NCBI RefSeq assembly: GCF_022846255.1
Contig: NZ_AP025682.1
Origin: Escherichia coli
GTDB lineage: Bacteria > Pseudomonadota > Gammaproteobacteria > Enterobacterales > Enterobacteriaceae
Length of the DNA: 64,000 bases
Reading direction: 5' to 3' (one strand)
The notes under the pieces are model-generated. The model made no database searches, was not told the origin of the DNA, and saw only the letters and a list, made by a program, of their open reading frames with translations. Made by a program: the position numbers and the translations under genes. Shown piece after piece: positions 24,944-47,705 of this stretch (position 1 is its first letter; every line of letters begins with the position of its first letter).

Positions 24944-25119
24944 CCCGAAAGGTTTACCAGGCCACCTGTCGTAAACGGGTGGCTTTTAACTGCCTAGTGT
25001 GATGCAGAATATGCCGCATCTCCCTATATTCTCACCCAACTATTATGTCGTTATTCCCTGAATAACTTCTGACCCGATTGCGCTTGAATCTGGCTGGTTC
25101 GATATTAAGGGGGCTAATA

Positions 25120-26313
25120 ATGTCCACTGTAAGTCTCAAACAATTATACGGAAAAACGCATGCATACTGGAGCGGCGTATTCGCCATGACGCTTTGCGTG
25201 TTTGTGCTGATCGCTTCTGAGTTTATGCCAGTCAGCCTGCTTACGCTCATTGCCCATGATTTGCACGTTACCGAAGGGCTGGCAGGGCAAGGAATTGCTG
25301 TCTCTGGTGCGCTGGCGGTGCTTACCAGTCTGACTATCTCCCGTATTACCGGAGACCTGAATCGAAAATATCTTCTGCTGGGGCTGACGGCCTTAATGGC
25401 CATATCGGGAATAGTTATCACCATAGCACCTGACTATCCGGTTTATATGCTGGGGAGGGCCCTGATTGGTATCGTCATTGGAGGGTTCTGGTCAATGTCG
25501 GCTGCAACCGCCATTCGGCTCGTGCCGAAGCAGCATGTCCCCCGCGCACTGGCAATTTTTAACGGCGGAAACGCACTGGCCACCGTTGTGGCAGCGCCAC
25601 TTGGTAGCTATCTGGGGACAACCATCGGCTGGCGTGGGGCCTTTTTATGTCTGGTCCCCCTTGCGATAGCTGCGTTCATCTGGCAATGGGTCAGTCTGCC
25701 TCCGATGGAAAGTGATAAAACACAAAAGCCACAGAGATCTGTGCTTCGCCTGTTCAGCGTTGCCATCGTACCAACGGGACTGCTGGCCTGCGGACTCTTC
25801 TTTATGGGACAGTTTGCTTTATTTACCTACGTGCGCCCCTTTCTGGAGAGCGTCACCAGAGTGGGACCTTCTGATCTTTCTCTGATTTTGCTCGCAATAG
25901 GTGTAGCAGGTTTTGTCGGCACAATGATCGTCTCAACATTCCTGAACACCATATTTTATAAGACCTTAATAATGATCCCGTTGCTTATGGCAGCGATTAC
26001 CGGTGCGTTACTGCTGGTCGGACACCATATCTGGGCTGTTGCCGTTTTACTCAGCCTGTGGGGGCTACTTGCGACAGCTGCGCCAACGGGGTGGTGGACA
26101 TGGATAGCACGCGCGTTACCCGAAGATGCAGAGACGGGGGGAGGCCTCATGGTTGCAGTGATTCAGTTATCTATTGCACTTGGTTCAACGGCTGGAGGTC
26201 TGGTATTCGACAGTCTGGGATGGAGAAGTGCTTTTGGTTTAAGTGGTTTGTTACTTCTGGGAGCGGTAGCGATGACATGTGCCACATCCCGTCAAAACAG
26301 GAAGGCGCAGTAG
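25120..26313 (+). CDS. MFS transporter (12 predicted TM segments)
   Basis: Start moved to MSTVSLKQ with an AAGGGGG RBS; hydrophobic throughout with MFS-like loop motifs. Confidence 0.75.
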   Translation: MSTVSLKQLYGKTHAYWSGVFAMTLCVFVLIASEFMPVSLLTLIAHDLHVTEGLAGQGIAVSGALAVLTSLTISRITGDLNRKYLLLGLTALMAISGIVITIAPDYPVYMLGRALIGIVIGGFWSMSAATAIRLVPKQHVPRALAIFNGGNALATVVAAPLGSYLGTTIGWRGAFLCLVPLAIAAFIWQWVSLPPMESDKTQKPQRSVLRLFSVAIVPTGLLACGLFFMGQFALFTYVRPFLESVTRVGPSDLSLILLAIGVAGFVGTMIVSTFLNTIFYKTLIMIPLLMAAITGALLLVGHHIWAVAVLLSLWGLLATAAPTGWWTWIARALPEDAETGGGLMVAVIQLSIALGSTAGGLVFDSLGWRSAFGLSGLLLLGAVAMTCATSRQNRKAQ

Positions 26314-27427
26314 CGCAATCCTTTTATTTCTGGCGTACGCTCTTTAAGGCATCCGGCTGAGAGGCTAATGATCACTCCTCGCTCACAACGGACCTTCAGC
26401 TCAGCTGCTCCGGCCGCTTCATGCCATGAATGTACGCAGCCAGCCAGAATATTAAGGTGCGGATTTCAGTTCACTTGCCAGCCCAGTGATACAGGACAGT
26501 AATGACCAACAATTTTGTATTGACACAACAAGTTGCGGCCCCGGTTCGTGGAGGAGATTAAACGACTGTAGCCGGGGCCACTGAAATGAAGAATTCAGAG
26601 AGACTGAATGATATGTCGCACCTTCAGTGAATAGTGTAAAAACCGGGATATTCTCATCCGGGATTACCCACTCATACTCAATGCGTAACTTTAGTGCGGC
26701 CCCACAGGTAAGAGCCGGACACATTTGTTGAGTACGCTGCAGAATTGGTAACCGGGGCCCTGCAGTCTTTAACTCTGTGTCTTGTGTTGCTCATTTGCCA
26801 CAAAATCCTGGTACGCCTGCTCAATCATTTCATTCAGCAGTTTTTTTGAGGGGACACCACGACTTTGGGTAATACTTTCAGGCTGTTTGTGGATTTTTCC
26901 GGACAGTTTCAGCGGACGGAACCATCAGCATGTTCATCACGCCTTTTTTGTTGCTCCCGGGCACTTTTTCAGCTCATCCACAATATAGCTGCTCTTCTCG
27001 CATTTTTGCCGATTTTAAAAATGCGAACAAAACATCCGTACATGATGTACAGATTAAACTGCCAGGGACTGGTGTCAGAAAGCCTCCGGTTAGCCTGCTC
27101 TTTCCGGAATGTGCCGGTTATGAAAAACCGGAAATTCAGTCTCTGTTGTAAGATGTACCCTCTGATACTACGTTTTCGTTTTCTCTGTGTATTTAACTCA
27201 CTGTATTTATTGTCTTTTTAAGCCTGACTGATATTCTCCGGTCATAGTGTGCCGGATAGACATCCCGTAACCTTCTCATTTTTATATAAAAATACCTGCA
27301 CTGTCTTCAGCGCATCTGTCTCCTTTAAGTAAAAAATGTTTTCACGTATTGCTGTAAATTCATTTTAAATCAGTATGTTATCCTGATATTGCTGTCTCCT
27401 GGTTTGATGCGTAATCGTTCTGCCTTT

Positions 27428-27461
27428 CTGGATGATTCTGGATGATTCTGGATGATTCTGG
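27428..27461. repeat. 10-bp tandem repeat (CTGGATGATT)x3 in a non-coding decayed stretch
   Basis: Direct reading. Confidence 0.9.
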
Positions 27462-28797
27462 TGCTTCCGGGTGCATTCTCCTCTGCACATGCAACAGTTC
27501 GTCATCGCCACGTGCCCAAAAAGCATATAAAAACGAATCGAATCTGATCGTTTTTTCAATCGTTTTTCACAGGAATTTCGTAGGGTGTTCTCCGCTATAG
27601 CCTCCATATTTGCTGTCTTTTTCTTCATAAATCGTATGCAATATAACCAGTCTGTCAAGACATCTTCCCTGCTGTTGAGGTGACGATCTCATTTCTGGTC
27701 TTTTCCGGGAGAGAGACGGTCAGATGAGCGAGCCGGATTTACTGCCAGAGGTACTCCCCGCGGCAGAAAATAGTGCTCCTGTTTCCGCAATCCGGGATCG
27801 GTAACGTCCCATGGTTAATGCCACTTGCAGCGTCAGGCACTGCAGGTTTACGTCGTGATCTGATTTCTTCTGCACTTATCCCGATCACGGAAGCTCCCCC
27901 TGCGCAGACATCGGTTCCTGCCGACATCTCACAATACCGCCAGGCTGTCATGCAGTAACACCCGCAATGCGGTCTGCGGTTTTAAGCGCACTCTCCTGTT
28001 TTCAGTGCACCGATAAGCGTTATAGAAAGTCTGGGGTGAGTTACTGAATGTCTGTTAAGTGGTGCCGTGGGTGGAGACTGCTTACTTTTCCACAGCAACT
28101 GCAGTCATTCAGGATGCTCAGGAGAGAATATGTCAACGCCACGAGCCGGGCCATTTTCATGCCAGCCAGTATATTTTCTACACTGATGCAGTCTGATTTT
28201 CACCATTCCATCCTCACTGATTGTCGTGTTGTTTTGGGTCATCACCACAGCTTTCCGTTTCTCTTTTAATCGGTAACGCTCTCCTTTGATATTCAGCGTG
28301 GTTGAGTGATGCAGCAGTCAATCCAGGAGCGCTGTTGTCCGGCAACCACCATATCAACTTCTTCCCGGCGTGCCGGCGCTGGTATCCAGGCCGGGTTTCG
28401 AAGCGAAGCGTTCCTGACGGACTCATTGACATCCGGGCCGGATGTAGTCATGCAGCATGGAACGTCCGCCCGTATACACTGACGGCGTCCGGCCGTGTAC
28501 AGAGATCGGTAAAATTCGTTACTACAACTGTTCCTGAATATCTGACGAAGAAACATTCAGCAATAACATCCGGCCGTGTACATCTCTTTTGCGGTGCAGG
28601 GAGCACTGTCGCCATGTACTTATTGTCACCAGGGTGAGGCATGTACCGCAGCATGCCAGCTCAGCAATGACAGGATGCCCTTAAGACATCCGTCATGGCT
28701 CAGTATGATGACGACGAACACGCTCTGCAGGTGAGCATGCAGGACCGGGGGTATCATCATTTCCGTATTTTGCCGCAGCTTCCGGAAACAACCGGCA

Positions 28798-29400
28798 TCA
28801 GTTACGGTTACCGTCAACCGTTGTGCGGTATGCCAGGAGCACGTACTGATCCATCAGATCCGTCAGTGCTGCGTTCTGCTTCTGACGGTCGATGATCCAT
28901 TCCCCCAGCTCTTTTTCTGATTTCCGTTTCAGGTTCTCCGTCCAGTCGTCAAGGCTGTTTCCGGTCATTAAATCAAGCCAGCAAAGCCAGACCAGTTTGA
29001 GGCGCAACTCCGTGCCACCAAACTGACGGAAGAGGCTGATCAGTTTATTTGCCAGAGAACGCTGCCTCAGACGTTCACATTCAGACAGCAGAATCCCTTC
29101 CAGCATCGGATGATGAACCAGCAGATGTTCGCTGGTGCATAAGTTCACCACCAGATCATCATCCAGGGGCGGCGTGGCCCGTTTGTCAGAGCCATAAATC
29201 AGCCGGTGCAGACTCCGGGGTACGATGGCAATCTTCGGTTTTTCACCATTGAATGACACCCACCCGGGCGTCAGATTATGGAAGTAGTGGATATTCGGAT
29301 GACACACGCCCCAGGATACGGCGTGCCGGGTGAAGCCGGTCAGCCATTTCTGGTAGCTTTCGTGGAGCAGCTCGTAACGGGTCTGATACTGTGGTTTCAT
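28798..29400 (-). CDS. Hypothetical protein immediately downstream of alpA (P4-like/satellite-type cargo)
   Basis: About 200-aa ORF; start placed at MKPQYQ because GAGGAA lies 7 nt upstream; co-oriented with alpA. Confidence 0.4.
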   Translation of the reverse strand: MKPQYQTRYELLHESYQKWLTGFTRHAVSWGVCHPNIHYFHNLTPGWVSFNGEKPKIAIVPRSLHRLIYGSDKRATPPLDDDLVVNLCTSEHLLVHHPMLEGILLSECERLRQRSLANKLISLFRQFGGTELRLKLVWLCWLDLMTGNSLDDWTENLKRKSEKELGEWIIDRQKQNAALTDLMDQYVLLAYRTTVDGNRN

Positions 29401-29493
29401 TTTCATATTCCTCACGGGGGATAACAGGCAGCAGAGTGCCGCCGGCAGGCCGGAGATTGCGTCTGCTGTGGGCGAAGGGCCAGTGGTTAAAAA

Positions 29494-29700
29494 TTACGGA
29501 CGGGACTGTGCAATACGCGCCTGCAGCCAGGCTTCCACTTCACTTTTCAGCCAGCGGGAGCTGCGGCCGAGTTTGATGGGAGCCGGAAAGGCCCCATCCT
29601 TGATGAGCTTGTAAAACCACTTATCGGTCAGGCCGGTCAGCTGAGTGATAAACGTCATATCGACCATCTGGTCATCCATCAGCGAAACTGGGGTGGTCAT
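29494..29700 (-). CDS. alpA: AlpA-family phage transcriptional regulator (prophage regulatory protein)
   Basis: 68-aa ORF with the AlpA signature ...ITQLTGLTDKWFYKLIKDGAFPAPIKLGRSSRWLKSEVEAWL... Confidence 0.7.
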   Translation of the reverse strand: MTTPVSLMDDQMVDMTFITQLTGLTDKWFYKLIKDGAFPAPIKLGRSSRWLKSEVEAWLQARIAQSRP

Positions 29701-30083
29701 AAAAATCTTCTCCGGATGTTGTTAATCTCAGCCGGCGTTGATGATGAAAACAACGCACCACCTTCACCGGCATAACAACCGGGGAGAAACGTAAAAAATC
29801 AGTAGGGGAATATTCCTGCCAGGAGAGAAACTGTTGTGTACAGGCAATACAGGTTGTCTGTTTTGTCAGTGAAGCCGGTATAAACGGAAGATGATTTTGT
29901 GTTGCCGGAATATGGGATGGCGTTTTGCCGTGACAGGATCAGTATTTTCAGTGATGATTATTACTGTGCAGGGGAGTACCGGAGAGAAACCACGCCCTGT
30001 ACCTGCCAGAGCGGTGGTTTGTATTGACTGAACGGAAGATAAAGCGAGGTAAACACTGTTGTGGTGAGCGGAGAAGACTGAGA

Positions 30084-30875
30084 TTATTCTCTGTAATTAC
30101 AAACAACAGTGATCTTATCCGGTTTTTTTACCGTTACGGGTTTCAGGGGATCAATTTTATAGACCGGGGTAATGACCACGCCGGAATTTATGGAGAAAAG
30201 CGGGATCCAGCAATAAACGTCAGGATATTTCTGTGTCTCCGGAATACCTTTTGTGCCAGAGGCCATCAGATCTTTAACGCTCACGAAAAATGACTTCCTA
30301 AGATCAAAAAAGTACTCGTTATATATCACATCCTTTGCCAGCAGGATGACTGCATTACCAACAGCCGATTTTACAGGTGTTTCATCAGGTGGATTATCGT
30401 GATTGTATATTGTTCTTTCTATATAAATAAAGCAGGCATATTTCGTCTTCTCCCCGGACAGTTGCATCTGGTATTCGCAAATGTCTTTGATACGCCGGCT
30501 TTCAACCCGTCCAATCATCTTATCCCGGCGATAGTGTCTTTTATGTTTCAGCGCGTACAGAACACCATTTGAACTGTCAAACTCCAGGATTTTTTTGGTG
30601 AAAAGTTTGTTTTCCCAGATTTCCAGACAATACTTCTCTGCGCTGACGACATTGCGTTTGTGGGGAAGATCCCGTTGATACACTCCATTTAATAAGCGTG
30701 ACTGCAGTTCGCCTGCAAGTTGATAGTAACAGTTAATGTCATTAAGGACAGGTGCTGTGGCGTTGAGTAATGTGTTGATTACCTTAGAGCGCGAAAGTTT
30801 GTGGATATGACAGTACTCATCCACAATTCGCAGCGTCTCATCACTGGTCATATTGAAAGTTATACGTGTTGTCAT
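30084..30875 (-). CDS. Hypothetical protein, possible N-terminal ribbon-helix-helix DNA-binding domain plus about 220-aa domain of unknown function
   Basis: 263-aa AT-rich ORF; N-terminus RITFNMTSDETLRIVDEYCHIHKLSRSKVINTLLNA is RHH-like by pattern; no strong RBS seen. Confidence 0.4.
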   Translation of the reverse strand: MTTRITFNMTSDETLRIVDEYCHIHKLSRSKVINTLLNATAPVLNDINCYYQLAGELQSRLLNGVYQRDLPHKRNVVSAEKYCLEIWENKLFTKKILEFDSSNGVLYALKHKRHYRRDKMIGRVESRRIKDICEYQMQLSGEKTKYACFIYIERTIYNHDNPPDETPVKSAVGNAVILLAKDVIYNEYFFDLRKSFFVSVKDLMASGTKGIPETQKYPDVYCWIPLFSINSGVVITPVYKIDPLKPVTVKKPDKITVVCNYRE

Positions 30876-31207
30876 GATGAAGTTTTCTGTTAATCATACT
30901 GGTTGATATGCATAACATTTCATAAAAAATGCTTTTAATTCATATAATTGATTTTTTGACTGGTTTTATCCTCGTGTGGTGGAAAGCAGTATTACTGCCA
31001 CTGTAGTCAGCATAACGCTATCACACAGAACCACCGAAAATGAAGCATTGCTCAGGGGGAAGCTGCCACTCGTATGAGTTCTCTGAACCATGATAACCAG
31101 TATTTTTCGTTTTGGGTGATTTGTTTATCGTTACAGCCATAAGCAGTTCATGTACCATTAAAAAATAATTAAGGTTAATTAGTATTATTTATAGAAGTAT
31201 GTTTATG

Positions 31208-31345
31208 TAACTCTACCTTGTAACTCTACCGTGTAAATGAACCCTGTAATTCTACCTTGTAAATGAACTCTGTCATTGTACCCTGTAATTCTACCTCTAC
31301 CTCTACCTCTACCTCTACCTCTACCTCTACCTCGTAAATACACCT
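31208..31345. repeat. Iteron-like repeat block: seven imperfect 12-13 bp direct repeats (TGTAA[C/T]TCTACC type) followed by (CTACCT)x7
   Basis: Direct reading; the hexamer array spans 31291-31332; about 0.9 kb upstream of a Rep-like gene. Confidence 0.8.
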
Positions 31346-32227
31346 TGTAACCAAGTCCTGTAGAAGTCTGTCTCATAGAAATATGTTCCTGTGCAGTGAT
31401 ACTCTCTGTAGTAGTACTTGTAACTCTGTCCTTAACTCTCTCTTCAGTAATGTAGTCCCGCAACACCTGAATATAAATCTGTAATGTACACACACTGACT
31501 GTAACGTGCTTTGTTAAGTAATACCTGTTATTTCTTCTGTTATTTTTCCTGTTGTTTTCTGTATTTTGTTGTATGGAGTAATAACTCTTCTGAACCCGTC
31601 ATCACCTTTATAGCTAAGAGTATGACTTCGCCAGTGTTGATACTGTGGATAACGGTGATTAAGGAATTACTGTTAATGATCTGTTCCTGCAGCTCACCTG
31701 ATGAGTTTTGGTAGTAATACGTAAAAGAGTATGCCTTATGCCATTAAACAGCCTTACGGAATGTTGTTTAACCCTGTACCTCTGTTACTCATGTAGTACG
31801 TTGCGGAAAGCTACGTTAATTGTAATATCTGGTTATGGCGTTATGCCTTCAGTATTAAAAACATCTTTTACCGGAGAAACAGGGAAGTGGGGAAAGGCTT
31901 TCGGGATAACGTCAGGCCATTCTGACGGTATTACGTTAATCACAGTACAGGATAACGGGAGGGTAATGGAATTTTAAACCAGAGTAGTTCCACTGTTGTT
32001 CACTGGAAAAAGTGATTTCCCACGCGCGTTATAAACGCCTTTCCGCTTCAGTCTGGTTACCAGAGCTTCAGGCGTTATATGCGCTGTAACTGGCTGTTAC
32101 GTATGCTGTTCTCTGTCTGCTTCTGATACCCCTGGACGTCGTTACCGGAGGTCACCCTGCCTGATAACGTTTTCTTCAAAAATTACGCCAGCGCTTCTTC
32201 CTGTGTTACAGAACACGAGGAAGAAAC

Positions 32228-32827
32228 ATGAAGACTTACAACACCAATCCCGGTTACGAAATGGATCCCCAGCTCCTGACACACTTTAACCAGCATCTGG
32301 ATTCATTATTCGGGGTATATTCGAAACTGTTACCGTTCAGAATGGATTTTGCTTACCGAAAAAACACCCTCAGCTACAGGTGTGCCTGCAGGTACGCCAT
32401 GTGCGCGGAGATACTGCGACTGATTAACGAAGTGGGAGAGAAACTGGTCGGGTATGCCTGGGTAATGGAATATACGGAACGTAAAGGGCTTCACATTCAT
32501 TTTGTGGGCTATCTGAACGGTCAGAGCCACAGGAGTTCGTATCTGGTATCCAGATTGATGGGAGATATCTGGAGGCGGGTTACCGAGGGTGATGGTTACT
32601 ACCACTGGTGCCGGTTTAATAAAAATTATCCGGTAAACATTAACCACGTCATTCACTATTCAGATCACAAAGCGGTGAATGCCTTACGCTATGCCCTCAG
32701 CTACCTGGCCAAACGAGAACAGAAAGAATGTGGCATCATCCTGAAATGCAGCGGGCTTCCTGAAAAAAGTAACCGGGGTCGACCGCGACTGGGCAGCACC
32801 CTGCCGGAGACTTATTCTCTGGTGTAA
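32228..32827 (+). CDS. Putative HUH-type replication initiator-like protein (YagK/YfjJ, inovirus Gp2-like family)
   Basis: 199-aa ORF with a GAGGAAG RBS; HUH-like motif LHIHFVGY and downstream Tyr-containing motif YALSYLAKRE; family assignment from memory. Confidence 0.45.
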   Translation: MKTYNTNPGYEMDPQLLTHFNQHLDSLFGVYSKLLPFRMDFAYRKNTLSYRCACRYAMCAEILRLINEVGEKLVGYAWVMEYTERKGLHIHFVGYLNGQSHRSSYLVSRLMGDIWRRVTEGDGYYHWCRFNKNYPVNINHVIHYSDHKAVNALRYALSYLAKREQKECGIILKCSGLPEKSNRGRPRLGSTLPETYSLV

Positions 32828-33192
32828 GACCCTGAACGACAACTACGGGCTGGCGCTAATTGTTACGGTCGGTTCCGGAGGCCACTTCAGGGACTCTGCG
32901 CATTTTTTACGACATGGCTATTCCGTATGAACCATACGGAGATTTAACCATGGCACATTCTTTACCATTCCTTCCGGCAACCGATACAGCGCATCCCCCG
33001 ATGTCCATCCCTGCCTGCTGACAGTTTTTTACGCCGGTGGGCCATTGTGTGACAACCACAGTGCTGTAACAGCAACCAGCCTGCTTTACCCAAACTCCAG
33101 TCCAGATTTTAACTGAACCGCCATTCACCCCCTGACCACACTGCCCGTACCGGGACAGCTGTTGCCTGCGTGTCGTCTGGCGGCTGAGGAAT

Positions 33193-33582
33193 ATGACGAT
33201 GTACGCAAAATCCTTTATTGCATTTGATGGCAACGGGCGTCTGACGGGTGCCCGTACCGCACAGACTGCACCTTACGATCGCTACACTTACCACCTTTGC
33301 GGCAGTGCGCTCAGATACCACCCGCAATACGACACTGAGCGTCCCTGGTTTGAACACACTGACGACGGGCTGACGGAGCACGGTCAGCAGTGCCCTTATG
33401 TCAGACCGGAACGCAGGGAGATACAACTGATTAAGCGTCTGCAGCAATTCGTACCGGATGCCTTACCCGTGGTGCGTAAAGCCAGCCGGCACTGCAGACA
33501 ATGTCATCACGATTATTATGGGGAGCGGTACTGCACGCACTGCCATACCGGGCACTTCAGTGAGGAGGGGGTGGCAGAATGA
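33193..33582 (+). CDS. Cys-rich hypothetical protein (zinc-ribbon-like), paralog 1
   Basis: 129-aa ORF with a TGAGGAA RBS; motifs C-x2-C ... WFEH ... C-x2-C-x8-C-x2-C-H-TG. Confidence 0.45.
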   Translation: MTMYAKSFIAFDGNGRLTGARTAQTAPYDRYTYHLCGSALRYHPQYDTERPWFEHTDDGLTEHGQQCPYVRPERREIQLIKRLQQFVPDALPVVRKASRHCRQCHHDYYGERYCTHCHTGHFSEEGVAE

Positions 33583-34004
33583 ACGGTATAAAAACGGGGC
33601 TGGGGATCACGCCGGGTGAACACATAATCAGTGCTGATTCTGCACTCAGCAGAAATATCCGGCAGTGTTTCTGCCTTTCCTGTCATGGCCGGTTGATTTT
33701 GCAGACAGATGCTCAGGGGGCATGGTTTGAGCATGATTTATATGCCCTGAGCGAGCAACAGAAGGCAGCCTGCGTGGTGCTGAATCCGGAGAAGTCCCAC
33801 CCTTACATTGAGGATATGGCGATGTTTTTATCGCCATTACCGGTCGTGCTGGAGTGGCATTGTATGATGTGCGAGGGGCTTTTTCATGGGAAGAAGTTCT
33901 GTGAGGCCTGTGGTACGGGGATTTATTGCAGAGCAACATGTACGAAGTATGTTTACAGGTACCAGCCAGATTTGTACCAGGACTGCGGAGGTGCACTCAC
34001 TTAA
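33579..34004 (+). CDS. Cys-rich hypothetical protein (zinc-ribbon-like), paralog 2, translationally coupled to paralog 1
   Basis: 141-aa ORF; ATGA start/stop overlap at 33579-33582 with a GAGGAGGGGG SD; same C-x2-C ... WFEH ... C-x2-C ... C-x2-C-G-TG pattern as paralog 1. Confidence 0.45.
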   Translation: MNGIKTGLGITPGEHIISADSALSRNIRQCFCLSCHGRLILQTDAQGAWFEHDLYALSEQQKAACVVLNPEKSHPYIEDMAMFLSPLPVVLEWHCMMCEGLFHGKKFCEACGTGIYCRATCTKYVYRYQPDLYQDCGGALT

Positions 34005-34706
34005 TCCGAAATGCCCGCTCTGCTCAGGGCGTTCAGGCTGACTATCAATGGCATACATTTTATCCGGTGTTTCGCACCCACACCGTGCAACGACTCGACA
34101 CCGGATATCCGCAGTCCCGCTTACCTGAATAAAACCCGGGGGATTGATTGTGTACTGTGGTGTGAAATCGCACCGTGATCGCTGATTCGCCGAATCCGCA
34201 CTGTGGTGTCAATCAACCACACGCGAGAGTCGTCTCAGGCTTCGCCTGCCTCAGGACGATTTCTGCATAGCTAATTCCCGGGGCAACATTTATAGAGGCG
34301 CTGTGCGCTCTGATGGTCGCCACTTCTGACCCGGACCATGCTCCTGATATGTCGGAATATAATGTGATGTTAGGCATCAGAGAGGAATATTTCGATGCCC
34401 CTAATCTGGGGCGTTTGATTCTGGATGTCTGGAGCAATCCGGGCTTTGTGTCACCGGACGAATCAAAGCAGTACCACCCGGGATGTGGCGCTGGATCGTC
34501 ATTCACCGGACTGTGAAGACATACTTAAAGAGCTGATATGGGCGTTCAGTGATTTCGCCCGCGATCATCGTGGTGTGTGTGATCCGGAAGCCCGTTACCT
34601 CGCCGGTAATCCTTGGTATCCGTAGCAGGCCAGCTCTGAAAGCACAGCTCAGCAGATTCCCCGCATTCGCACAACCTTCATAAATCTCACAGAGGACATT
34701 GTGGCC

Positions 34707-34916
34707 ATGTTGACCACAACAAGCCACGACAGCGTATTGCTGCGTTCCGATGATCCCCTGCTCGACATGAACTACATCACCAGTTTCACCGGCATGACCG
34801 ACAAATAGTTTTATAAACTGATCAGTGAAGGCTATTTTCAAACTGGGCGGTACAAAAGCGAAGTGGAGCAGTGGATGCAGCAGCGAATAGAGGGAGCGTG
34901 GGGGCAGCAGGATGAA
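34707..34916 (+). pseudogene. alpA-like regulator pseudogene (in-frame amber at codon 34 replacing the conserved Trp; normal stop lost)
   Basis: Translation MLTTTSHDSVLLRSDDPLLDMNYITSFTGMTDK-stop-FYKLISEGYFQTGRYKSEVEQWMQQRIE parallels the intact AlpA at 29494-29700; TAG at 34806-34808. Confidence 0.5.
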
Positions 34917-35816
34917 ATGTGTTGTGATGCCGGTACGCTGGCATTGTGCAAAATGCCGGCGCTACTATTGTGGAAATCAGCCCTGTCCCTGGTGCTGGCG
35001 ATACTCCCTGCAGACATTCTCCGGTCAGCCAATAGGTTGTTGCTCTTTCCTGATCGATTCGTCATTCCATTCTTTTTGTTTATAATGGGCATTACACTGG
35101 TGTTGGCGTGTTTACCTGCGTGTCTGCACCGGTTCAGTAAAATTAGAAAAGTTCAGAGTCGGGGGAAATCCGGCGTTTTGTTCAGCAGGCGGTGGATCAC
35201 TGGCCAAATCTGTTGGCATTTCACTTCACGTTCCATTCGACAGAAGGAAACATCTACGGGCAACAGATTCATGCATTCTGCACTTCCTTTTACCAACAGA
35301 TACACAAACGTATTACTGCACGTACTCACACGACCAGTCCATCATCGCCGTTGGTGTTACACTGGCTGCTGGAACAACATGGAGGAGCAGTAATACGATG
35401 CGTATTGCTCCTCAGCCAGACGAGTATTTGTCATCCGCGAGCCAGCGTCACGGTTGATGAAGAATGTTCGAAACTGGTGGATTTATTGCAACAGATCTGG
35501 CCAGTGATAAGCACTGGCGGACAATGCCAAGTGGAAAGGTGTTTTCAGGTTGCCCGGGGTGATACATCAGAGCAATACGTTGCGTTAAAAACAGATGCGT
35601 TGTCGTTTGCTGTGTCGGATCACAAATCATCCGGTGCAGAGTAGTATTCTGGCTGTATTCTGGTAAATCAGCGTATTATCGATATATTATCGTACTATCA
35701 GAAACCGTATCGTCTGTTGATGGCTAGACTGGCCCCCCTGAATCTTCAGACAACCAATATCACTTATTTAAGTGATAGTCTTACTACTAGTTTTTAGACT
35801 AGTCATTGGAGAACAG

Positions 35817-36182
35817 ATGATTGATGTCTTAGGACCGGAGAAACGCAGACGGTGTACCACTCAGAAAAAATCGATATTGTTCAGCAGAGCCTTGAACCGG
35901 GGATGACAGTCTCTCTCGTTGCACGGCAACACGGTGTGGCAGCCAGTTATATCTCTGGCGCAAGCAATACCAGGAAGGAAGTCTCACTGCTGTGGCTGCC
36001 GGAGAGCAGGTTGTTCCGGCCTCTGAGCTTGCTGCCGCCATGAAGCAAATTAAAGAACTCCAGCGCCTGCTCGGCAAGAAAACGATGGAAATGAACTCCT
36101 TAAAGAGGCCGTCGAATATGGACGGGCAAAAAAGTGGATAGCGCACGCCCCTTATTGCCCGGGGATGAGGAGTAAACGTCGT
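35817..36182 (+). pseudogene. insC: IS2 orfA (insC) disrupted by frameshifts
   Basis: The frame from ATG 35817 stops after 29 codons; the conserved InsC segments ([53 protein letters not shown]) appear in three different frames. Confidence 0.5.
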
Positions 36183-36198
36183 CAGTCGTTGTCGCCGG

Positions 36199-37038
36199 GT
36201 GTCGCATGAGCAGTTGCACATCATTCTCAGACGAAGTGATGACTGGAAGGATGGCCGCCGCAGTCTTCACACTGATGATACGGATGTGCTTCTCCGGATA
36301 CATCATATCATCGGAGAGTTGCCCACGTATGGTTATCGTCGGGTATGGGCGCTGCTTCGCAGACAGGCAGAACTTGATGGTATGTCTGCGATCAATGCCA
36401 AACGTGTTTACCGGAACATGCGCCAGAATGCGCTGTTGCTTGAGCGAAAACCCGCTGTACCGCCATCGAAACAGGCACATACCGGCAGAGTGGCCGTGAA
36501 AGAAAGTAATCAGCGATGGTGCTCTGACGGGGTCGAGTTCCGCTGTGATAACGGAGAGAGACTGCGTGTCACATTCGCGCTGGACTGCTGTGATCGTGAG
36601 GCACTGCACTGGGCGGTGACCACCGGCGGCTTCAACAGTGAAACAGTACAGGACGTCATGCTGGGAGCGGTGGAACGCCGCTTCGGCAACGATCTTCCGT
36701 CGTCTCCAGTGGAGTCGCTGACGGATAATGGTTCATGCTACCGGGCTAATGAAACACGCCAGTTCGCCCGGATGTTGGGACTTGAACCGAAGAACACGGC
36801 GGTGCGGAGTCCGGAGAGTAACGGAATAGCAGAGAGCTTCGTGAAAACGATAAAGCGTGACTACATCAGTATCATGCCTAAACCAGACGGGTTAACGGCA
36901 GCAAAGAACCTTGCAGAGGCGTTCGAGCATTATAACGAATGGCATCCGCATAGTGCGCTGGGTTATCGCTCGCCACGGGAATATCTGCGGCAGCGGGCTT
37001 GTAATGGGTTAAGTGATAACAGATGTCTGGAAATATAG
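36199..37038 (+). CDS. insD: IS2 transposase orfB (InsD, DDE integrase-fold catalytic domain)
   Basis: 279-aa ORF recalled as InsD-like (...[13 protein letters not shown]...NQRWCSDG...[10 protein letters not shown]...[14 protein letters not shown]...). Confidence 0.8.
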
Positions 37039-37049
37039 GGGCAAATCCA

Positions 37050-37508
37050 AACATAGGTTGAGGTGTTTTGTCCATGCAGACGAATGCAATTAGCGACGTT
37101 GACTCCGGCCTGACGAGTTTGCTCTAGTAATGTTTCTCCATAAAAATCATTGCCTACAGCAGATATCAGATGTACATCCCGGCCCAGCAAAGCGAGATTA
37201 TGAGCGATATTGCGACCTACCCCACCAGCAGAGCAATAAATTCTGCCTGGATTAGAGGAGGTCTGTGGATAACTTATATCCGCTACACCACGAATATCCA
37301 TGTTAATCGCACCCAATGCGACACAATATTTTTGTTGAGTCAAGATGTAACCTTTACCTTTGATAGCCCCTTTACGCATTAGATCCATTATGTGCGCAGC
37401 GACACGCGAACGACTGATCTGCAAAATATCAGCAATTTCACTCTGTTGAATCAGTGGATTACGTCGCAGGATGCTGAGTATTTCTTTTTCTCTGTGATCC
37501 ATCGGCAT
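37050..37508 (-). pseudogene. HTH-containing PfkB-family sugar kinase (YeiI-like) gene truncated by the IS2 insertion
   Basis: N-terminal HTH (EKEILSILRRNPLIQQSEIADILQISRSRVAAHIMDLMRKG) followed by a ribokinase-type motif (GGVGRNIAHNLALLG). The reading frame runs straight into the IS2 right end at 37049. Confidence 0.5.
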
Positions 37509-38491
37509 GCTCCTGTCTGTTTATTTAATGTTCATAAAAATGATATTCAATGTCCTCTCATGAGTATTACTCAGGAAATAATATCGTCGAATTTTTTTCT
37601 GAGTAATAAGATATAATATATCAGTTTTTCTTAACAAATTGTAGGCTGATTTGAGTTGAATCCAGATGATTGAACTCATTCAGTCAAGCCAAATGATTGA
37701 GAAATTTCGTTTTCCGATATGTGATTGTTGCGTTGTGGTTGGGATAATGTAATCTATTTTCCATGTGGGAGAAAAAACCTTCACTATCGTGTAATCGTGG
37801 ATTCAATCTGGAACGACAACGTCCAACCATTGTTCTGCAACATGATGTGAGTGTCAGTTGGTGGTTCCGGATAAAGGAATAAAAGAAGATAGATTATTAA
37901 TCCCCTGATATATAACGCGATTTGTAATTAAATAGTCTTATTTGATGTTGAACGTTAAATAGCTTCTCTATTGTGATGTAACAATATACAGTGATTAATG
38001 ACAAGCATCTTGCAATGCATCTTACAATGTTATACTTTGATATTTTTGGCTGTGTTGGTCAGAGGCTGACTTCGCGGAATATTTATTTCGTAATTCAAAA
38101 AAATATTGATGTCTTTTTTATAAACCCAAAAATCGAATGAAAGAATCAGATTGTATATCTGATACAGATCATGGAAAAATGAATGTTCACTCGTATAGAC
38201 TCCTGATAAGTCAATAGTGAGTATAGTAAATATGATCATTTATTGTTTCGTTTTATCAATCTTATTGATTATTCTTCTGTTTTTCTTCTATTCTAAGAGA
38301 TGGGTGTCTGCTTTTTATAGATATCGTCAAAAGCGCTATCATCAGAAAGTCAGGGACAAAGCGTTTAATGCTTATGCAGAGGAAATGAAGAAAAAGAACA
38401 AAGATATAAAAAAATATAAACATTTCTGGCTTCCTCCACTCTGATTCATTAGTGTGTGTAGTTCCGATATCTTGTTTTACAGGAGAATATC

Positions 38492-38722
38492 ATGATCAAA
38501 GATTCAAAATCATCGAATAATGGCGAATATTTAACGACGAATGAAATTGTTAAGATGCAGTGGCTAATGAGTAAAGCTCGTGTTAATGCTGGCAAGTTAA
38601 AGAAACAAAACACCTCTGCATCTTCACAATCAGGAAAGAATGCCTCATATTTTCTAGAAGAATTAGTATCTAATAATCCAAAAAAATTAAAATCAGGTTG
38701 TGATAGCACAAGAGAAGAGTAA
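38492..38722 (+). CDS. Small hypothetical hydrophilic protein (76 aa) in an AT-rich region
   Basis: Good SD (AGGAGAA, 6-nt spacer) before the ATG; otherwise unsupported. Confidence 0.25.
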   Translation: MIKDSKSSNNGEYLTTNEIVKMQWLMSKARVNAGKLKKQNTSASSQSGKNASYFLEELVSNNPKKLKSGCDSTREE

Positions 38723-40732
38723 TACACCGATAAACTGCTCAGCAGGAATGTTCTCGGTCACGAGTCGCTCAACTGTTGTAAATATGGCATCGGGAACTAT
38801 ATATTTGAGTTTAGTTTATCTAATGACAGGAATCCTTGTGGTCGTCTTTTTCTTGAACGATGTAGGGGCTGCGCAAAGTGATTTTCCTGCTTCTGCATGC
38901 AGTCCTTCTAAGATCGTGAGAGAGAAAACATGGACATTGGGGAAAGCTGAGAGCATCAAATTATTTAACCACGACGATTTATCCCTGCTTTGTTGTACTG
39001 CCGTAATGCTTGAGCTGGATAGTCCTGAATCACGGGGAAATCTACGGCTCCCGATTTTTAATAGTTGCGACCTGATAAAACAGCACCGTATATCCTCGCA
39101 CTGAAGGGCCGGGTTTTACAGCGTACTGGATAATTGACTATGCGTTGAAGTACAAATTGATAATGCCAGCCTGAAAACAGAATTCTCTGATCTATTTACA
39201 AGACTATATACTTGACAACGACTCTCTTGTCAAGATATATTATTTGAGAGTACCCCTGTGCCACCCTGTTATGGCTATGACTCGTGTTGGTGGTATAGGG
39301 TACGCTCTGATACTTTTAATTAGGTGAATATAGCGGTTCATTTTGGAGTTTTAACGGGTAATGTGGTTGGATTGTAATCGTCCTCTGTATTATAAAGTCT
39401 GGAGGTTGCTTTTGTAGCAATATTCTGATCTGACTCCTGCAATTGGTTTCCAATGTTTACATCATAAAATCCATTTATAATGAGGATCAATTTGTAAACT
39501 ACCGAGATCCTTATTTGGGCTTTATACCAAACTTACCTACGGTTCACTCTAAATTAAGTCATTCTGTTAGTAGCTGGATTTGCTGCGAGCTGATATTTTT
39601 CATATTTTTATATCGTGATTACCTGTTATGGACTGTTCTGCAGCTTAGATCTTAGTCAAAGCTGTGTATATTCATTACTATCGTTATCTTTTACTCGTAG
39701 GATGATTATATTGCTACCTGTACCGTTTAGTCATCGTAAGTGTAGTGGTGGCCGAGGAACACCGGATCGGTATAAGGTGAAAAAGTGCTTTTTCAGGTAT
39801 CCGCGTCAATGTTATCGTAATTTTTAGTATGACGATAACCTGCCGTGACCAGCATTTTGGTTAATAATTTCAGTATAGTATCCAGTTGTAGGTCCTGGCG
39901 TGAATAGGACAAACGTATTATCTGCAAAAACAATGCTCGTTCGGAGTGTCAGTCAGTTATTCTGGTTGTATTGGATCGAGCCCTGATTGCGTGTGATATG
40001 GAAATACTCAGTTTCATAATTGGCGATATCCCGGGAAGAACTAACAAGCTGCGTTGTAGTTTTAACTTTTGCCACAATTTCGTCATATGCTGAATTACGG
40101 TTGCAGTTCCCGCCAGAATAATCGACAAAATCGTAGCCAGCGCTAATGAAATTTAATCAGTCATAAATGAAGAGTACGCTAAAGGTTTCTGGTACTAACA
40201 AAATTCGTTTTGCCATTTCAATCCTCTGTGCAGATAATTTATTGTTGGAATGAACAGATTCCGGTTAGAAAATCACATGTTGCAATCACGAGTGGGGCAG
40301 GTTGCTTGTTCGGGGAAATAATTTACCTTGATAAAATATTAAAATTGTATATCAAGTTCTAAATACATCTCAATAAAATAAACTAATTTATTTTATTCGT
40401 TAATAATAGTTTATTCTGGAGAGGTACAGACGCGGGCAGTTCACCCAGAATATGATTACTGATACGTACCTGGTTAAACAGCCCCGATGTTGATATTCAG
40501 TAATACGAAGTTTACGACTATTTATCTGATTTCATTGTTGGGGATTTTTAATCTCGACTTAATGCTAAATACGGGCCACTTTGATGTCAGCCTTATCTGA
40601 AGGTACCGATAATGAACGGACATTCTACTATATAAATAGTTCACGATTAGAACTAATTTGTAGTACTATTATGAGTAATAGTGAATCTGGGGAAAATCAG
40701 GACATGGAGCATGGCATCATCATTTTCACGCT

Positions 40733-41800
40733 TTGCAAAGCATGCAGCTGTTAATTTTACTGATACAGCAAATGAAAGATAAATTACGATTTGAAGTGAA
40801 TGATACTCAGGGCCGTTTCATCTTTCCGGAAACATGGTTCAATACACTTATAGATGAATTTGAGGAACTGGTTGAGGCATATGATGCGGAAAAAATATGT
40901 GGGAAAAACTATATAAGTGAACTCCAGCGTCTTACCGAGCAGGTGCCTGATTTTATCGATGCGTACGCTCATTTGGCATACGTGTTTCTGGAACAGAATG
41001 CGCCATATCAAGCCCTGGATATGGCGCTTAAAGGTTTAGCTGTAGGTAACCGTTTAATAACAGAAGGGTTCAATGGAGAAATTCTCTGGATATATCCAGA
41101 GAATCAACCCTACCTGCGGGCCCTTTATGCTACAATCCTTGCCAATATACATCTTCAACATCATCAGGATGCCGTCATACTTACGGATAAAATATTGACG
41201 TATAACCCAGAAGATAATCAGGCTGCACGATGGTTACTGGGACAAGAACTGTTACGTGCAGGCGAGCGTGATCGGGCGCTGACCCGGTATTCTGATGAAT
41301 TTTCACCTTATTGGTATGAACTTGGATTTCTGCTCTTTCTTAACGGAGAGTTCGTGACGGCAGCAACTGCTTTTCGCCACGGTTTTGCCACTAATATCTA
41401 TATTGCAGATATTTTATGTGGAAATCTACATCCCTTTCCACTTCCTCTGTGGCATAGTTTCTTGGGAGGACCAGACATCGCTGAAGATTATTATGCAACA
41501 TATGGTCTGTTCTGGGGGCAATATCCGGAAGCATTACTTTTCGTAAATTGGCTCTACAATCAGTCATCTGTGTTGAATGAAAGAGCAACAATAATTAAGT
41601 GTGCAGAAGCATTGTTGCGAGAAGATGATTACGAGGCATGCGAGAAGATTCTTAAAGAACAGAAGAGATTACAGGATAATATTGACGACAGGATTTCTGA
41701 GAAAATAGTTAGGAAATACCGAACATTGCAAGGGGATGAGATTTGGCCATGGATGTTACCGTCTTCAATTGATAAGGAGCTGTCCCCTTTTGATGAATAA
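40733..41800 (+). CDS. Hypothetical helical-repeat (TPR-like) protein
   Basis: 355-aa ORF of moderate GC inside an AT-rich region; repeated amphipathic helix pairs; true start may be the internal MKDKLRF. Confidence 0.5.
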   Translation: MQSMQLLILLIQQMKDKLRFEVNDTQGRFIFPETWFNTLIDEFEELVEAYDAEKICGKNYISELQRLTEQVPDFIDAYAHLAYVFLEQNAPYQALDMALKGLAVGNRLITEGFNGEILWIYPENQPYLRALYATILANIHLQHHQDAVILTDKILTYNPEDNQAARWLLGQELLRAGERDRALTRYSDEFSPYWYELGFLLFLNGEFVTAATAFRHGFATNIYIADILCGNLHPFPLPLWHSFLGGPDIAEDYYATYGLFWGQYPEALLFVNWLYNQSSVLNERATIIKCAEALLREDDYEACEKILKEQKRLQDNIDDRISEKIVRKYRTLQGDEIWPWMLPSSIDKELSPFDE

Positions 41801-42428
41801 ATATGTGTTGCACGTTTAATATATTAATCATGGCTGGGCGTATAAATCATCATGAAGAGGTATAAATTATAATTATACCATGATTATGAACACGCCCTTC
41901 ATTCTACATCTGTAGGGCGTGATCTTCTACTGAATTTGATTGTAATTATAGCAGTATCTGTATAATGGCTTTATCAGTGAGTTAATATTATGTCGTATGT
42001 AATATAGTAACAGAACAATAATATAAAAATTAAGCTGAGTGTGGATATAAAAGAAAGTTTGTTATAGATTAAATGAAATACCCTCAGAAATATTCTGATG
42101 TAAGGTTATACATAATTGTCGACTATAATCGTATGATATTACATGAGTTTTTAGTGAGTGTGCGATTTCATGTCAGAAATGGATTGTAATGTTTTGTACA
42201 TAAGCATATTTGAGTGCTAAGTGCCTGATGGATATATGTTAAAATATATAACCCTTTGAGTACATTGTCCAAATGGATATAAGAGATAATTTATTATATC
42301 AAAAAATCTGATAACTGAAAACCTCTTGTGTCCCAATAAATAAGCTTAGTTTTAGAAAAATGAGATGAATTTATACAGTGATGCCCTATGAAGCTATTAT
42401 CATGATAGTCATGACACATAATTCTCGT

Positions 42429-43739
42429 TTATTTTAATGGACTAATATCACTATTATTATCGCTATCTGTGATTTTTTCCCCATTCACGGAGATCATTCC
42501 CTGGATATATGAATCCCATAGATGTACGTCACCTTTATGAAAAATAATGCATGACATTGCGATTTTTTGTACTTTATATATCTGTTTATAGTATTCTTCT
42601 GAGTTTAATGGTGTATCTTTCAAGCTTTCATTCCTTGCTGGAAGAATCTTGACGGGACAGATAAAATCTGTATCCCCGAGTGAAAAGACATTAACTCCGG
42701 TTATAAAAAAGATACCCGGAATGTCTTGATGCAATCTCGTATTCCAGACTTGAGGATTAAACAGTTTATATGAATATTTATTTACATCTATATAATATTG
42801 ATGAGGACGCCAATCACTGATACCCGACATACTCATCGTCATATTGATAATTATATCAGGAATAGGTTTGAATAATACACTTAGAATGAACAATATGGCA
42901 GGAGGGAGTATTGCGATAGATAGCAAAGAGTTCAACCCTTCTTCTTGTTTTTCTTCTTGCTCATTTATCACTATCACACCTGGCAACATTCCTAAAAAGA
43001 TAAAAGCTAATGCAATGCAAGAAAATGATAGAAACTGTGATAAGATATCTGCACTCTCTTCAAGTCTGATCTTATTTGTCAAAAATAGCAGGGGGATAAT
43101 CTGAACAAGCCCGGGTAGAATTAAACATAAAGGAAGAGTGTATCTTATCCTGTTCCTGGGACGATATTGTTCGTGATTCTCGTGATTCTCGTGATTCTCG
43201 TGATTCTCGTGATTCTCGTGATTCTCAATGTTCTGTTCCCGAGGGGTATTTTTAGTGAATATTAATTTTTCTGAGAGGAAATATGAGACGAAATAATTAA
43301 ATAATACTATTAGTATTACTTCTGATATGGATGGATATAGAGTATTTTCTTCTGAAAAGGTAGACAGAACTGACTTTAGCACTAATGAAAAATAGAAAAC
43401 AACACTGTTCATATAGCAAATTATAGCAATTCTGTGCGCGATTCCTTTGTGATTTTTATAATAGTCTTTATGCCATGTATATGTATACACCAATACATGA
43501 GAAGATATAAAAATCAGTGAGGTTAGAGCCATTAGAGATAAAAGGATAAATATAAAGATAACACTTAAATAAAACTTTATGTCTATTGAGTCGAAAAACA
43601 AATCAAGTCTACCGAGTCCTTGCAGATAGAACCATATTGCAGATATGGCGCATCCTGTACTAAATACAGAAGACGTTAACATGGCGAGAAAAGCTTTATT
43701 ATTTAAATGTGAAAAGATAGATCTATTCATTATAAGCAC
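42429..43739 (-). CDS. Hypothetical polytopic membrane protein with an (ENH)6 His-rich repeat loop and a C-terminal soluble domain
   Basis: 436-aa very AT-rich ORF with multiple hydrophobic segments; 9-bp tandem repeat encodes ENHENHENHENHENHENH. Confidence 0.5.
   Translation of the reverse strand: MLIMNRSIFSHLNNKAFLAMLTSSVFSTGCAISAIWFYLQGLGRLDLFFDSIDIKFYLSVIFIFILLSLMALTSLIFISSHVLVYTYTWHKDYYKNHKGIAHRIAIICYMNSVVFYFSLVLKSVLSTFSEENTLYPSISEVILIVLFNYFVSYFLSEKLIFTKNTPREQNIENHENHENHENHENHENHEQYRPRNRIRYTLPLCLILPGLVQIIPLLFLTNKIRLEESADILSQFLSFSCIALAFIFLGMLPGVIVINEQEEKQEEGLNSLLSIAILPPAILFILSVLFKPIPDIIINMTMSMSGISDWRPHQYYIDVNKYSYKLFNPQVWNTRLHQDIPGIFFITGVNVFSLGDTDFICPVKILPARNESLKDTPLNSEEYYKQIYKVQKIAMSCIIFHKGDVHLWDSYIQGMISVNGEKITDSDNNSDISPLK
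43172..43225. repeat. 9-bp tandem repeat (CGTGATTCT)x6 inside the membrane-protein CDS (in-frame, encodes (ENH)6 on the - strand)
   Basis: Direct reading. Confidence 0.9.
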
Positions 43740-43945
43740 ATCATATTCTGTTGAGTATATGTCGATTTTATAATGTCATGTTCATGCAGATAATATCATA
43801 AGTAACATTAGTTGAACAAGAACAGAGTTGTAACAGATAAAGATCTCGTTGTTAGTTACATGATCTGATAAATGTTAGCATGAAATAGTAACTATATGAA
43901 GGATATAAGAACCTGTATCATAATGTCATATGCGTTATATCTGAT

Positions 43946-44707
43946 TCAGATATATTTTAATTTTGCTGATAGTTCTCGACATGCTTCAAGAACCAAAGTG
44001 GAATAATATTCTACTTTTTCTTTTGGCATTTGAATTTCCACACCACTAATGCTGATAGCAGCAATTGCTTCTCGAGCCTGATTAAACACCGGGGCGGCAA
44101 TGCAATAAATTCCTGGTGAATCTTCTGCGTTATCAAAAGCCCATCCTCGCTCACGAATACGTGCAAACTCTAGTATTAGATCAGATTTCCGAGTGATTGT
44201 CGTTTGCGTAAATCGAGGCAATGCCTCCTCAGGTAGTAAAGTGTCAATGACGTCTTGAGGTAACCATGCGCATAACGCTTTCCCCACCCCTGAGCTATGG
44301 AGTGGCAGCTTCTTACCTACCCACGTTCTGATACCAATTGGTTGAGTGCTTTCGAGTTTTAAGATATAGATTGGAGCGACTTCCTCAAGAATGCCTAAAT
44401 GGCAGATAAGATCAGTACTATCTCTCAGTTTTTCCAGCACCGGTCTCGCTACCTTACTTATGTCAAACTGTTCTAGCGAGCGATTTCCCCATTCATATAA
44501 TTTCAGTCCAAGGAAAAAACGCCCCCTTTCCTGACGTAACAAATGGTGTTCGACCAGAGCATTCAGTAAAGATGATGTGCTGCTTTTAGGCAGAGCCAGA
44601 TCTTGCTGGATTTGACTGAATGTGGCACCAGGAGAGTTGAAAAGATAATTGCAGATTCTGACTGTTTTATCGAGTGCTGGTACTGGTGTTCTTGTTTGAT
44701 TATTCAT
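43946..44707 (-). CDS. IclR-family transcriptional regulator
   Basis: 253-aa ORF with N-terminal HTH and C-terminal IclR effector domain; divergent from the catabolic operon. Confidence 0.8.
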   Translation of the reverse strand: MNNQTRTPVPALDKTVRICNYLFNSPGATFSQIQQDLALPKSSTSSLLNALVEHHLLRQERGRFFLGLKLYEWGNRSLEQFDISKVARPVLEKLRDSTDLICHLGILEEVAPIYILKLESTQPIGIRTWVGKKLPLHSSGVGKALCAWLPQDVIDTLLPEEALPRFTQTTITRKSDLILEFARIRERGWAFDNAEDSPGIYCIAAPVFNQAREAIAAISISGVEIQMPKEKVEYYSTLVLEACRELSAKLKYI

Positions 44708-45204
44708 AAAAAAATAACATATGATTTCTTACCAATGCTAAATAGTATACCCCAATCTTTATTAATGCATAGTGATGCTTAATCATTATGTTGCAGTTGA
44801 TCGACACAGGGGGACAAGAGTAGTTGTGTCACTGCCACATCACCCGGCATGCGATTTCACATCGGGATGTTCGAGAAGCATCAATGCTGCGCCCAAGATC
44901 CACCGAAAAGAAACGTGGGAATCACCGGCGGTGGGATTCATTGTCTATGCCCGTGTAGATTAGTGTGGATTTGCTGCACAGATGGTTCCGGTCTGAGAAA
45001 TGGGTAAATTCGTCGTTTACGACGGGAAGCTGCCTACACATGTTATACATCGTCTTCGTGTATCAACATGCTCCTATAAACTCGACTCAACTCACATTTT
45101 TCATTTCACATTGTAAAAACCTTTGACATGCAGAACCTTATTCTGATTCATTATATTCAACATGAAGAACTTTTGTTCCATATACAGAACTTAGTGAGAG
45201 CGAT

Positions 45205-46104
45205 ATGTTGACAGCGTTTAGAGGTATTTTTCCGCCGGTTCCTACTATTGTTGACGCACAGGGGAAACTGGATAAGACGGGTATGGCCCGAATGATTGAC
45301 CATGTAATAGAGAATGGTGCAAACGGAATGCTGATCCTAGGCAGTGGGGGCGAATTCTCACAATTTTCTTCCCAACAACGAAAAGAGATAGCAGCATTTT
45401 GTTTAAATCATGTAGATGGAAGAGTGCCTGTACTGGTGGGGGTTGCTTGTGCCGGGACAGCAGAAACTATTGAGCTGGGACGCCATGCTTATGAGCACGG
45501 AGCTGATGGTGTGCTGGTTGTTAATCCGTATTATGCAAAACTCAGCGATGATGCCCGGTTTATGCATTATAAATCTATTGCTGATACACTTGAAATCCCG
45601 GTGTTTCTCTATAACTTTCCTGATTTAACCGGCCAGGATATTGGACTTGAAGTCATTACCCGGCTGGCCCGGGAAGTTCCTAATATCGTGGGTATCAAAG
45701 ATACAATCGATAACATCAGTCATACCCGAGAAATTATCAACCGTGTACATTCATTTCGTCCGGATTTCATTATATTCAGTGGTTATGACGAATATATGCT
45801 GGACACTCTGTTACTGGGTGGTCATGGCGGTATTCCGGCAACATTCAATTTTGCTCCGGAAATCACACGGGGTATTTATCAGGCTGTTATGGAAAATGAT
45901 CTTGATAAGGCGCGTTATTTCCAACAACAACTGGCAAAATTGTCTCCGTTGTATGCGCTTGAGCAACCTTTCTTTGGGGTGATAAAGACCGCCATCAAAC
46001 TGAGTGGACTGGACATATCTACTGCAGTTATGGCACCGGCTCTTCCGCTCAGTGATGAGAAAATATCCAGAGTAAAATCCATTCTGGAACAAATTCATCA
46101 GTAA
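45205..46104 (+). CDS. DapA/NanA-family class I aldolase/lyase (dihydrodipicolinate synthase-like)
   Basis: 299-aa ORF with family motifs (GSGGEF, NPYY, Schiff-base lysine context IVGIKDT). Confidence 0.8.
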   Translation: MLTAFRGIFPPVPTIVDAQGKLDKTGMARMIDHVIENGANGMLILGSGGEFSQFSSQQRKEIAAFCLNHVDGRVPVLVGVACAGTAETIELGRHAYEHGADGVLVVNPYYAKLSDDARFMHYKSIADTLEIPVFLYNFPDLTGQDIGLEVITRLAREVPNIVGIKDTIDNISHTREIINRVHSFRPDFIIFSGYDEYMLDTLLLGGHGGIPATFNFAPEITRGIYQAVMENDLDKARYFQQQLAKLSPLYALEQPFFGVIKTAIKLSGLDISTAVMAPALPLSDEKISRVKSILEQIHQ

Positions 46105-46120
46105 TCACGAGGGACGCAGG

Positions 46121-47638: not shown

Positions 47639-47705
47639 TAACACAGGGCAGAGTTTATCCTGCCCTGTTGAAGTAAACACCGTTTTAGATAATTAGAGGT
47701 GAATA

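Follow-up and report, generated by a model that had tools for sequence, protein, structure and literature searches.

What occupies the 2.5 kb between an MFS transporter gene and a yfjI-like gene in this Escherichia coli genomic island: a hidden gene or RNA, or the remains of genes? The gap covers positions 26314–28797 of the window (the whole 64-kb stretch of DNA that was analysed) and is set between the MFS gene (25078–26313, plus strand) and a 205-aa yfjI-like gene (28798–29415, minus strand). In the mechanical ORF list, its reading frames are short and overlap on both strands, the longest being 118, 111, 97 and 90 aa, and a six-frame Pfam search of the whole gap returned no protein-family match other than one fragment, IstB. 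Both results bear out the original prediction that the gap lacks credible ORFs. A translated search for an intact conserved gene that the ORF list might have missed likewise found none, with the IstB tail as the only Pfam match and fragments as the only tblastn matches. In the homologous stretch of other genomes, PGAP calls fragments and no intact gene, and alignments of paralogous islands show frame-breaking indels in every non-coding part of the gap. Two small corrections come from the PGAP annotation of the near-identical strain 82.0311. It calls one pseudogene fragment of a "hypothetical protein" and another of an "AAA family ATPase" within the gap, and one intact 66-aa ORF at the right edge. 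We conclude that the 2.5 kb are very probably non-functional debris at the join between the island backbone and an inserted LysR/hydrolase/MFS cargo.

The surrounding DNA points to a CP4-like pathogenicity island. Of 5,426 complete E. coli genomes searched by megablast, 1,132 contain 80% or more of the stretch; the closest match is the urine isolate 82.0311, at 99.4% identity, and Nissle 1917 matches window positions 26379–28797 at 96.8%. The gene content of window positions 1–50000 was read from the RefSeq annotation of this strain. In that annotation, the kps capsule cluster lies in the same island, and a "yee" block runs in the order DUF4942, CbtA/CbeA, JAB, antirestriction and DUF932. The MFS side of the gap carries Ag43 and a GTPase, then LysR, alpha/beta hydrolase and MFS transporter genes; beyond the gap come the yfjI-like gene, an AlpA-type regulator, Gp2/YfjJ-like genes and zinc-ribbon genes. 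The backbone set of a CP4-like or GI-pheV-type island is thereby present: AlpA, YfjI/YfjJ-like proteins, the GTPase, Ag43 and CbtA/CbeA.

GI-pheV has been described as a mosaic of modules with insertion sequences between them, related to CP4-44 and reshaped via recombination, insertion and deletion (PMC11537424), and the gene content of the present island fits this published picture. Shared with GI-pheV and CP4-44-like islands are AlpA, the YfjJ/Gp2-like genes, the GTPase, Ag43/flu, the yee genes with CbtA/CbeA and an adjoining kps cluster, as well as a modular organization in which IS remnants mark the module limits and recombination has rearranged the modules. The island differs from CP4-44 of K-12, which lacks the studied stretch, and the K-12 element was dropped as a reference for that reason. 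Because no tRNA gene lies within the 64-kb window, we infer attachment at pheV only from gene content. Read via L013, window positions 1–21000 and 30000–50000 contain a group-2 kps cluster, the CbtA/CbeA toxin–antitoxin pair, Ag43, several YfjJ/Gp2-like and zinc-ribbon genes, and a pectin/oligogalacturonide utilisation cluster, a cargo typical for an ExPEC island.

At the MFS end of the gap, the first 65 bp (26314–26378) are the 3′ tail of the LysR/alpha-beta hydrolase/MFS cargo module. This limit is read directly from homology, as matches to paralogous islands begin at query positions 62–66, corresponding to window positions 26375–26379. In alignment A3, ...GGTCCGTTGTGAGCGA is common to every island copy, and beyond it the copies differ. 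The breakpoint at 26378/26379 is equally a matter of observation: depending on the genome, the backbone sequence is joined there to one of five sets of cargo, comprising TonB/ABC transporter, DUF2971/GNAT genes, dynamin, ParA, or LysR/hydrolase/MFS. Since the island copies have a common end point and carry different cargo in each genome, 26378/26379 is a recurrent recombination breakpoint.

On its other side begins the 390-bp non-coding 3′ flank of an orphan gene (26379–26768, minus strand), which is 82–96% identical to the copies L003, L004 and L005. The flank has no Pfam match, and island copies differ in it by frame-breaking 1-nt and 34-nt indels. Within it, tblastn aligns 26487–26639 (minus strand) with residues 17–65 of the island GTPase, at 36% over 53 residues and with a stop inside. 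The match is weak (22.7 bits), a score equalled or beaten by 6 of 2,000 shuffles, and it is not reproduced in the paralogous flanks. Its spacing from the orphan gene is the same as that of the real GTPase in strain 20 (L012). These observations give a weak hint that the segment may be the very decayed 5′ end of a GTPase gene.

In paralogous islands, the orphan gene itself is intact: a 383–391-aa "hypothetical protein" gene, encoded on the minus strand, fills precisely the place at which DNA is missing from the window (in L003, at L003:5394–6566, minus strand). The window retains both of its ends. Codons ~321–390 and the stop form a 3′ remnant (26769–26978, minus strand; tblastn and PGAP) that is frameshifted near 26915: residues 343–390 of the L003 protein align at 88% identity and residues 318–342 at 80% in another frame with a stop, for a joint E value of 4e-24 by tblastn. 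PGAP annotates a frameshifted partial pseudogene at this position. The start codon and ~8 diverged codons form a 25-nt 5′ stub (26979–27003, minus strand), identified by three-way comparison. Between stub and remnant, pairwise BLAST indicates a gap of ~940–950 bp at 26978/26989, and the three-way comparison with L003 and L005 shows ~940 bp missing, with the deletion junction at 26979/26978 and 1 nt of microhomology. About 267 records that are colinear at 95% identity or more have this deletion in common. Frameshifts in the gene occur elsewhere too, in NCTC 86 and one further strain. The gene is located directly upstream of the island GTPase in some islands.

Relatives of the orphan protein are E. 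coli sequences only among 5.8 billion clustered proteins. A protein scan of representative genomes of 100,044 species returned none outside E. coli, and a conserved 22-mer was likewise absent outside E. coli from the 100,044 species-representative genomes. Phage records gave no match and plasmid records gave five, three of which fall in records of 1.0–1.4 Mb, a size more typical of chromosomal sequence. The protein has no significant match in Pfam, NCBIfam, PHROGs or PDB sequences, and a literature search by protein accession found nothing. Among 70%-identical homologues, the C-terminal half is well conserved, and the N-terminal half is variable and proline-rich. The AlphaFold model of the protein is poor (mean pLDDT 39); only residues ~341–385, which form two helices, reach 56–78, and this modelled terminal unit is reminiscent of a ribbon-helix-helix.

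Toward the yfjI-like gene, the gap contains an IS21-family relic in two directly joined pieces. Its right end (28131–28338, minus strand; BLAST and Pfam) comprises the terminus ...CGTGGCGTTGACA, which ends at 28131 and is the same as the end of an intact IS21 copy, followed by IstB residues 214–265. Positions 28150–28337 match the IS21 right end at 84.6% nucleotide identity over 188 nt, and the IstB residues are 73% identical to IS21 IstB (tblastn, E = 4e-19). The Pfam IstB_IS21 profile scores 26.6 bits against a cut-off of 24.1 and is covered at positions 209–238 of 238, that is, by an IstB fragment only. Joined to this tail is a fragment of IstA, residues ~85–133 (28334–28476, minus strand; BLAST and tblastn), which matches internal istA of IS21 at 81.8% nucleotide identity over 148 nt (E = 6e-35); tblastn recovers residues ~85–121 at E = 3e-4. 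No left end of the relic was found, and the DNA beyond 28476 is the flank of the yfjI-like gene.

Like elements of the IS21/IS100 type, the relic has its IstB and IstA segments and right terminus in canonical order and orientation. Unlike them, it has ~345 bp left of a ~2.1-kb element, with ~1.4 kb deleted internally and the 5′ part gone, and it contains no intact reading frame in the window; it is an immobile, dead element. The same internal-deletion junction between IstA and IstB is found in L003, L004 and L012, and L009 has a different one. As several islands share the same internal deletion, the insertion is old and has decayed in parallel across the island family.

The relic is bordered on the right by the non-coding 3′ flank of the yfjI-like gene (28477–28797; alignment A2 with L002, L005 and L009), which has lineage-specific indels and holds TCCGGCCGTGTACA repeats. 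Three direct copies of this 14-nt motif (TGTACACGGCCGGA on the minus strand) lie at 28465–28582, beside the IstA fragment, and one of them is specific to the window lineage. At a finer scale, 26379–28476 is itself a mosaic. The orphan-gene remnant and its 3′ flank are nearest to L003 (95.7%), the upstream DNA is nearest to L005 (90.6%), and L002, 97% identical overall, changes affinity inside the 3′ flank. Such mosaicism implies frequent recombination between paralogous islands.

The upstream DNA of the orphan gene makes up the remainder of the gap and falls into two parts. The proximal part (27004–27750, minus strand; alignment A1 and composition) is non-coding and AT-rich, at 35–44% GC. The second (27751–28130), between the orphan-gene module and the IS relic, is an older, more divergent non-coding segment with a divergence of 0.12–0.16, a 43-bp indel between lineages, no recognisable gene and no Pfam match. 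Of the 5,426 complete genomes, ~2,087 retain the whole ~1.1-kb upstream stretch at essentially its full length, and in most of these carriers it is free of PGAP annotation. Divergence levels were observed directly: in an eight-copy alignment, mean pairwise divergence is 0.124 in the distal part, 0.043 in the proximal upstream part and 0.026 in the coding sequence, with a step near window position 27750. A "super-conserved" non-coding block seen in a six-sequence alignment was rejected on the basis of this profile and of dS in the neighbouring genes. dS of the orphan gene is only 0.03–0.07; that of the yfjI-like gene and alpA is ~0.27–0.34 between more distant copies. Because dS of the adjoining orphan gene is this low and upstream divergence exceeds that of the coding sequence, the "conserved core" is just the upstream part of a young module, evolving faster than its coding sequence.

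Within the proximal part lies a tandem repeat. The original prediction had described it as three 10-bp copies at 27428–27461, and Tandem Repeats Finder, with which a second repeat search agrees, recovers the same array in another register: TTCTGGATGA ×3.6 at 27426–27461, with a period of 10 and 100% matches. A perfect 36-nt periodic tract within 2.5 kb is not chance. Five other aligned copies, including the 97%-identical L002, have 1.6 copies, that is, two TTCTGG hexamers 10 bp apart, and strains 82.0311 and 82.0312, both urine isolates, have 2.6 copies (the 161-bp form). A 171-nt query around the array matches 2,090 genomes, 2 with the 161-bp form and the rest (~2,088) at ~151 bp, with 1.6 copies; the 3.6-copy form was found elsewhere in none of the 2,090 (at least 95% identity to the window form). 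Copy numbers distributed in this way show that an ancestral 1.6-copy motif was expanded recently and in steps, probably by slippage, within a single small lineage. We infer the mechanism and the order of events. Slipped-strand mispairing between the two hexamers would have generated the repeat, which would have passed from 1.6 copies through 2.6 to 3.6 after the downstream gene had already died in this lineage, since the deletion in that gene is common to the ~267 colinear records.

Could the repeat instead be functional, as a phase-variation (contingency) tract or as a set of protein-binding sites one helical turn apart? Its 10-bp period does equal one turn of the DNA helix and its copy number differs among the closest relatives, and like contingency loci it is a short tandem repeat whose variation among close relatives is consistent with slipped-strand mispairing. 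Unlike contingency loci, however, it lies outside the promoter spacer and the reading frame of any intact gene, and its expanded form is confined to a single small lineage, consisting of 2 of the 2,090 genomes and the window itself, with no attachable phenotype. It sits ~165–200 nt downstream of the sole promoter-like site and upstream of a gene that is destroyed in the lineage, no replication gene or cognate regulator adjoins it, and its ancestral state is only 1.6 copies. Of the alternatives considered here, a functional repeat is the least probable. An overlooked small protein gene is extremely unlikely as well. One candidate is the 66-aa ORF WP_011076196.1 (28695–28895, plus strand; PGAP), which is annotated in many genomes and survives in several paralogues, with an in-frame 3-nt indel. 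It runs antisense to the 3′ end of the yfjI-like gene, though, stops interrupt it in L003 and L004, and its changes outside the overlap are mostly amino-acid replacements, so that this ORF is probably spurious. The other is a 97-aa ORF (27365–27658, minus strand), annotated in L004 in a 79-aa version, but 1–2-nt indels and the expanded repeat shift the 97/79-aa frame from copy to copy. No protein family matches either ORF.

The original prediction had further suggested that the gap could hide ncRNAs or degraded genes. Degraded genes it does contain, in the orphan-gene remnant and the IS21 relic; for an ncRNA, Rfam, folding and divergence give no support, and a hidden ncRNA was rejected as a candidate. 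One form of this idea would place at about 27004–27660 (minus strand) a small RNA that annotation has missed, or else a long 5′ leader with a regulatory role, functional even where the gene is deleted. In its favour are a candidate sigma-70-like promoter, TTGACA-16-TACGAT (27631–27658, minus strand; 10 of 12 positions), conserved in all A1 copies, terminator-like hairpins on the same strand at 27314–27297 and 27054–27034, the full-length retention of the stretch in ~2,087 genomes, and the folding of 27000–27300 (minus strand), which is somewhat better than that of shuffles (z = -2.2). Yet the region has 2 promoter-like sites against a shuffle expectation of 3.2, the hairpin count is not above that in shuffles, and the candidate promoter-to-terminator transcript folds like shuffled sequence (z = -0.35 for the minus and -0.38 for the plus strand). 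No Rfam 15 family reaches its gathering score in 25500–30500; the only match at E ≤ 1, to CRISPR-DR13, falls within the istB fragment at 28174–28203 (minus strand), scores 27.9 bits where the gathering score is 37 (E = 0.28), and is judged to be due to chance. The proximal DNA also diverges more than the adjacent coding sequence and tolerates 1–2-nt and 6-nt indels and a 20-bp repeat expansion. The copies diverge by only 3–5%, so covariation tests are powerless here. A functional RNA or leader is thus highly unlikely, and the promoter-like site is plausibly that of the orphan gene. As Rfam, folding, site counts, divergence and ORF frame shifts all speak against them, a hidden gene or ncRNA in the gap has no support.

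The gap is best read as debris, in line with the original suggestion of gene remains at a module junction, for which the truncated orphan gene, the IS21-family relic and the breakpoint with its five cargo sets all argue. The backbone would comprise AlpA, the yfjI-like gene, the orphan gene, the GTPase and Ag43, and the other side of the join would be inserted cargo. Followed along the minus strand from the yfjI-like gene, the proposed order is its 3′ flank, the IS21 relic (~345 bp), ~380 bp of old spacer, the ~750-bp AT-rich upstream region of the orphan, the gutted orphan gene, its 390-bp 3′ flank and the breakpoint at 26378/26379. The orphan gene, ~391 aa when complete, would have suffered an illegitimate deletion of ~940 bp first and a frameshift afterwards. 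The 2.5 kb as a whole would be devoid of function.

Most of the gap is already flagged as pseudogene fragments in RefSeq, and it represents an ordinary decayed junction of a mosaic pathogenicity island. The leftover leader upstream of the dead gene may still be transcribed, given its conserved promoter-like site, and retention of the full ~1.1 kb in so many genomes could reflect function and not mere linkage. There is a very small chance that this ~650-nt AT-rich leader is transcribed as an unannotated island RNA in ~38% of complete E. coli genomes; if so, the 10-bp repeat expansion would alter that RNA. The finding matters mainly for annotation, in that 2.5 kb that look empty are fully accounted for by an orphan-gene remnant, a dead IS21-type element and junction scraps. 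In addition, a small lineage of urinary isolates can be told apart at fine scale by the copy number of the repeat (1.6, 2.6 or 3.6), and the breakpoint at 26378/26379 marks the point at which cargo modules are swapped in this island family.
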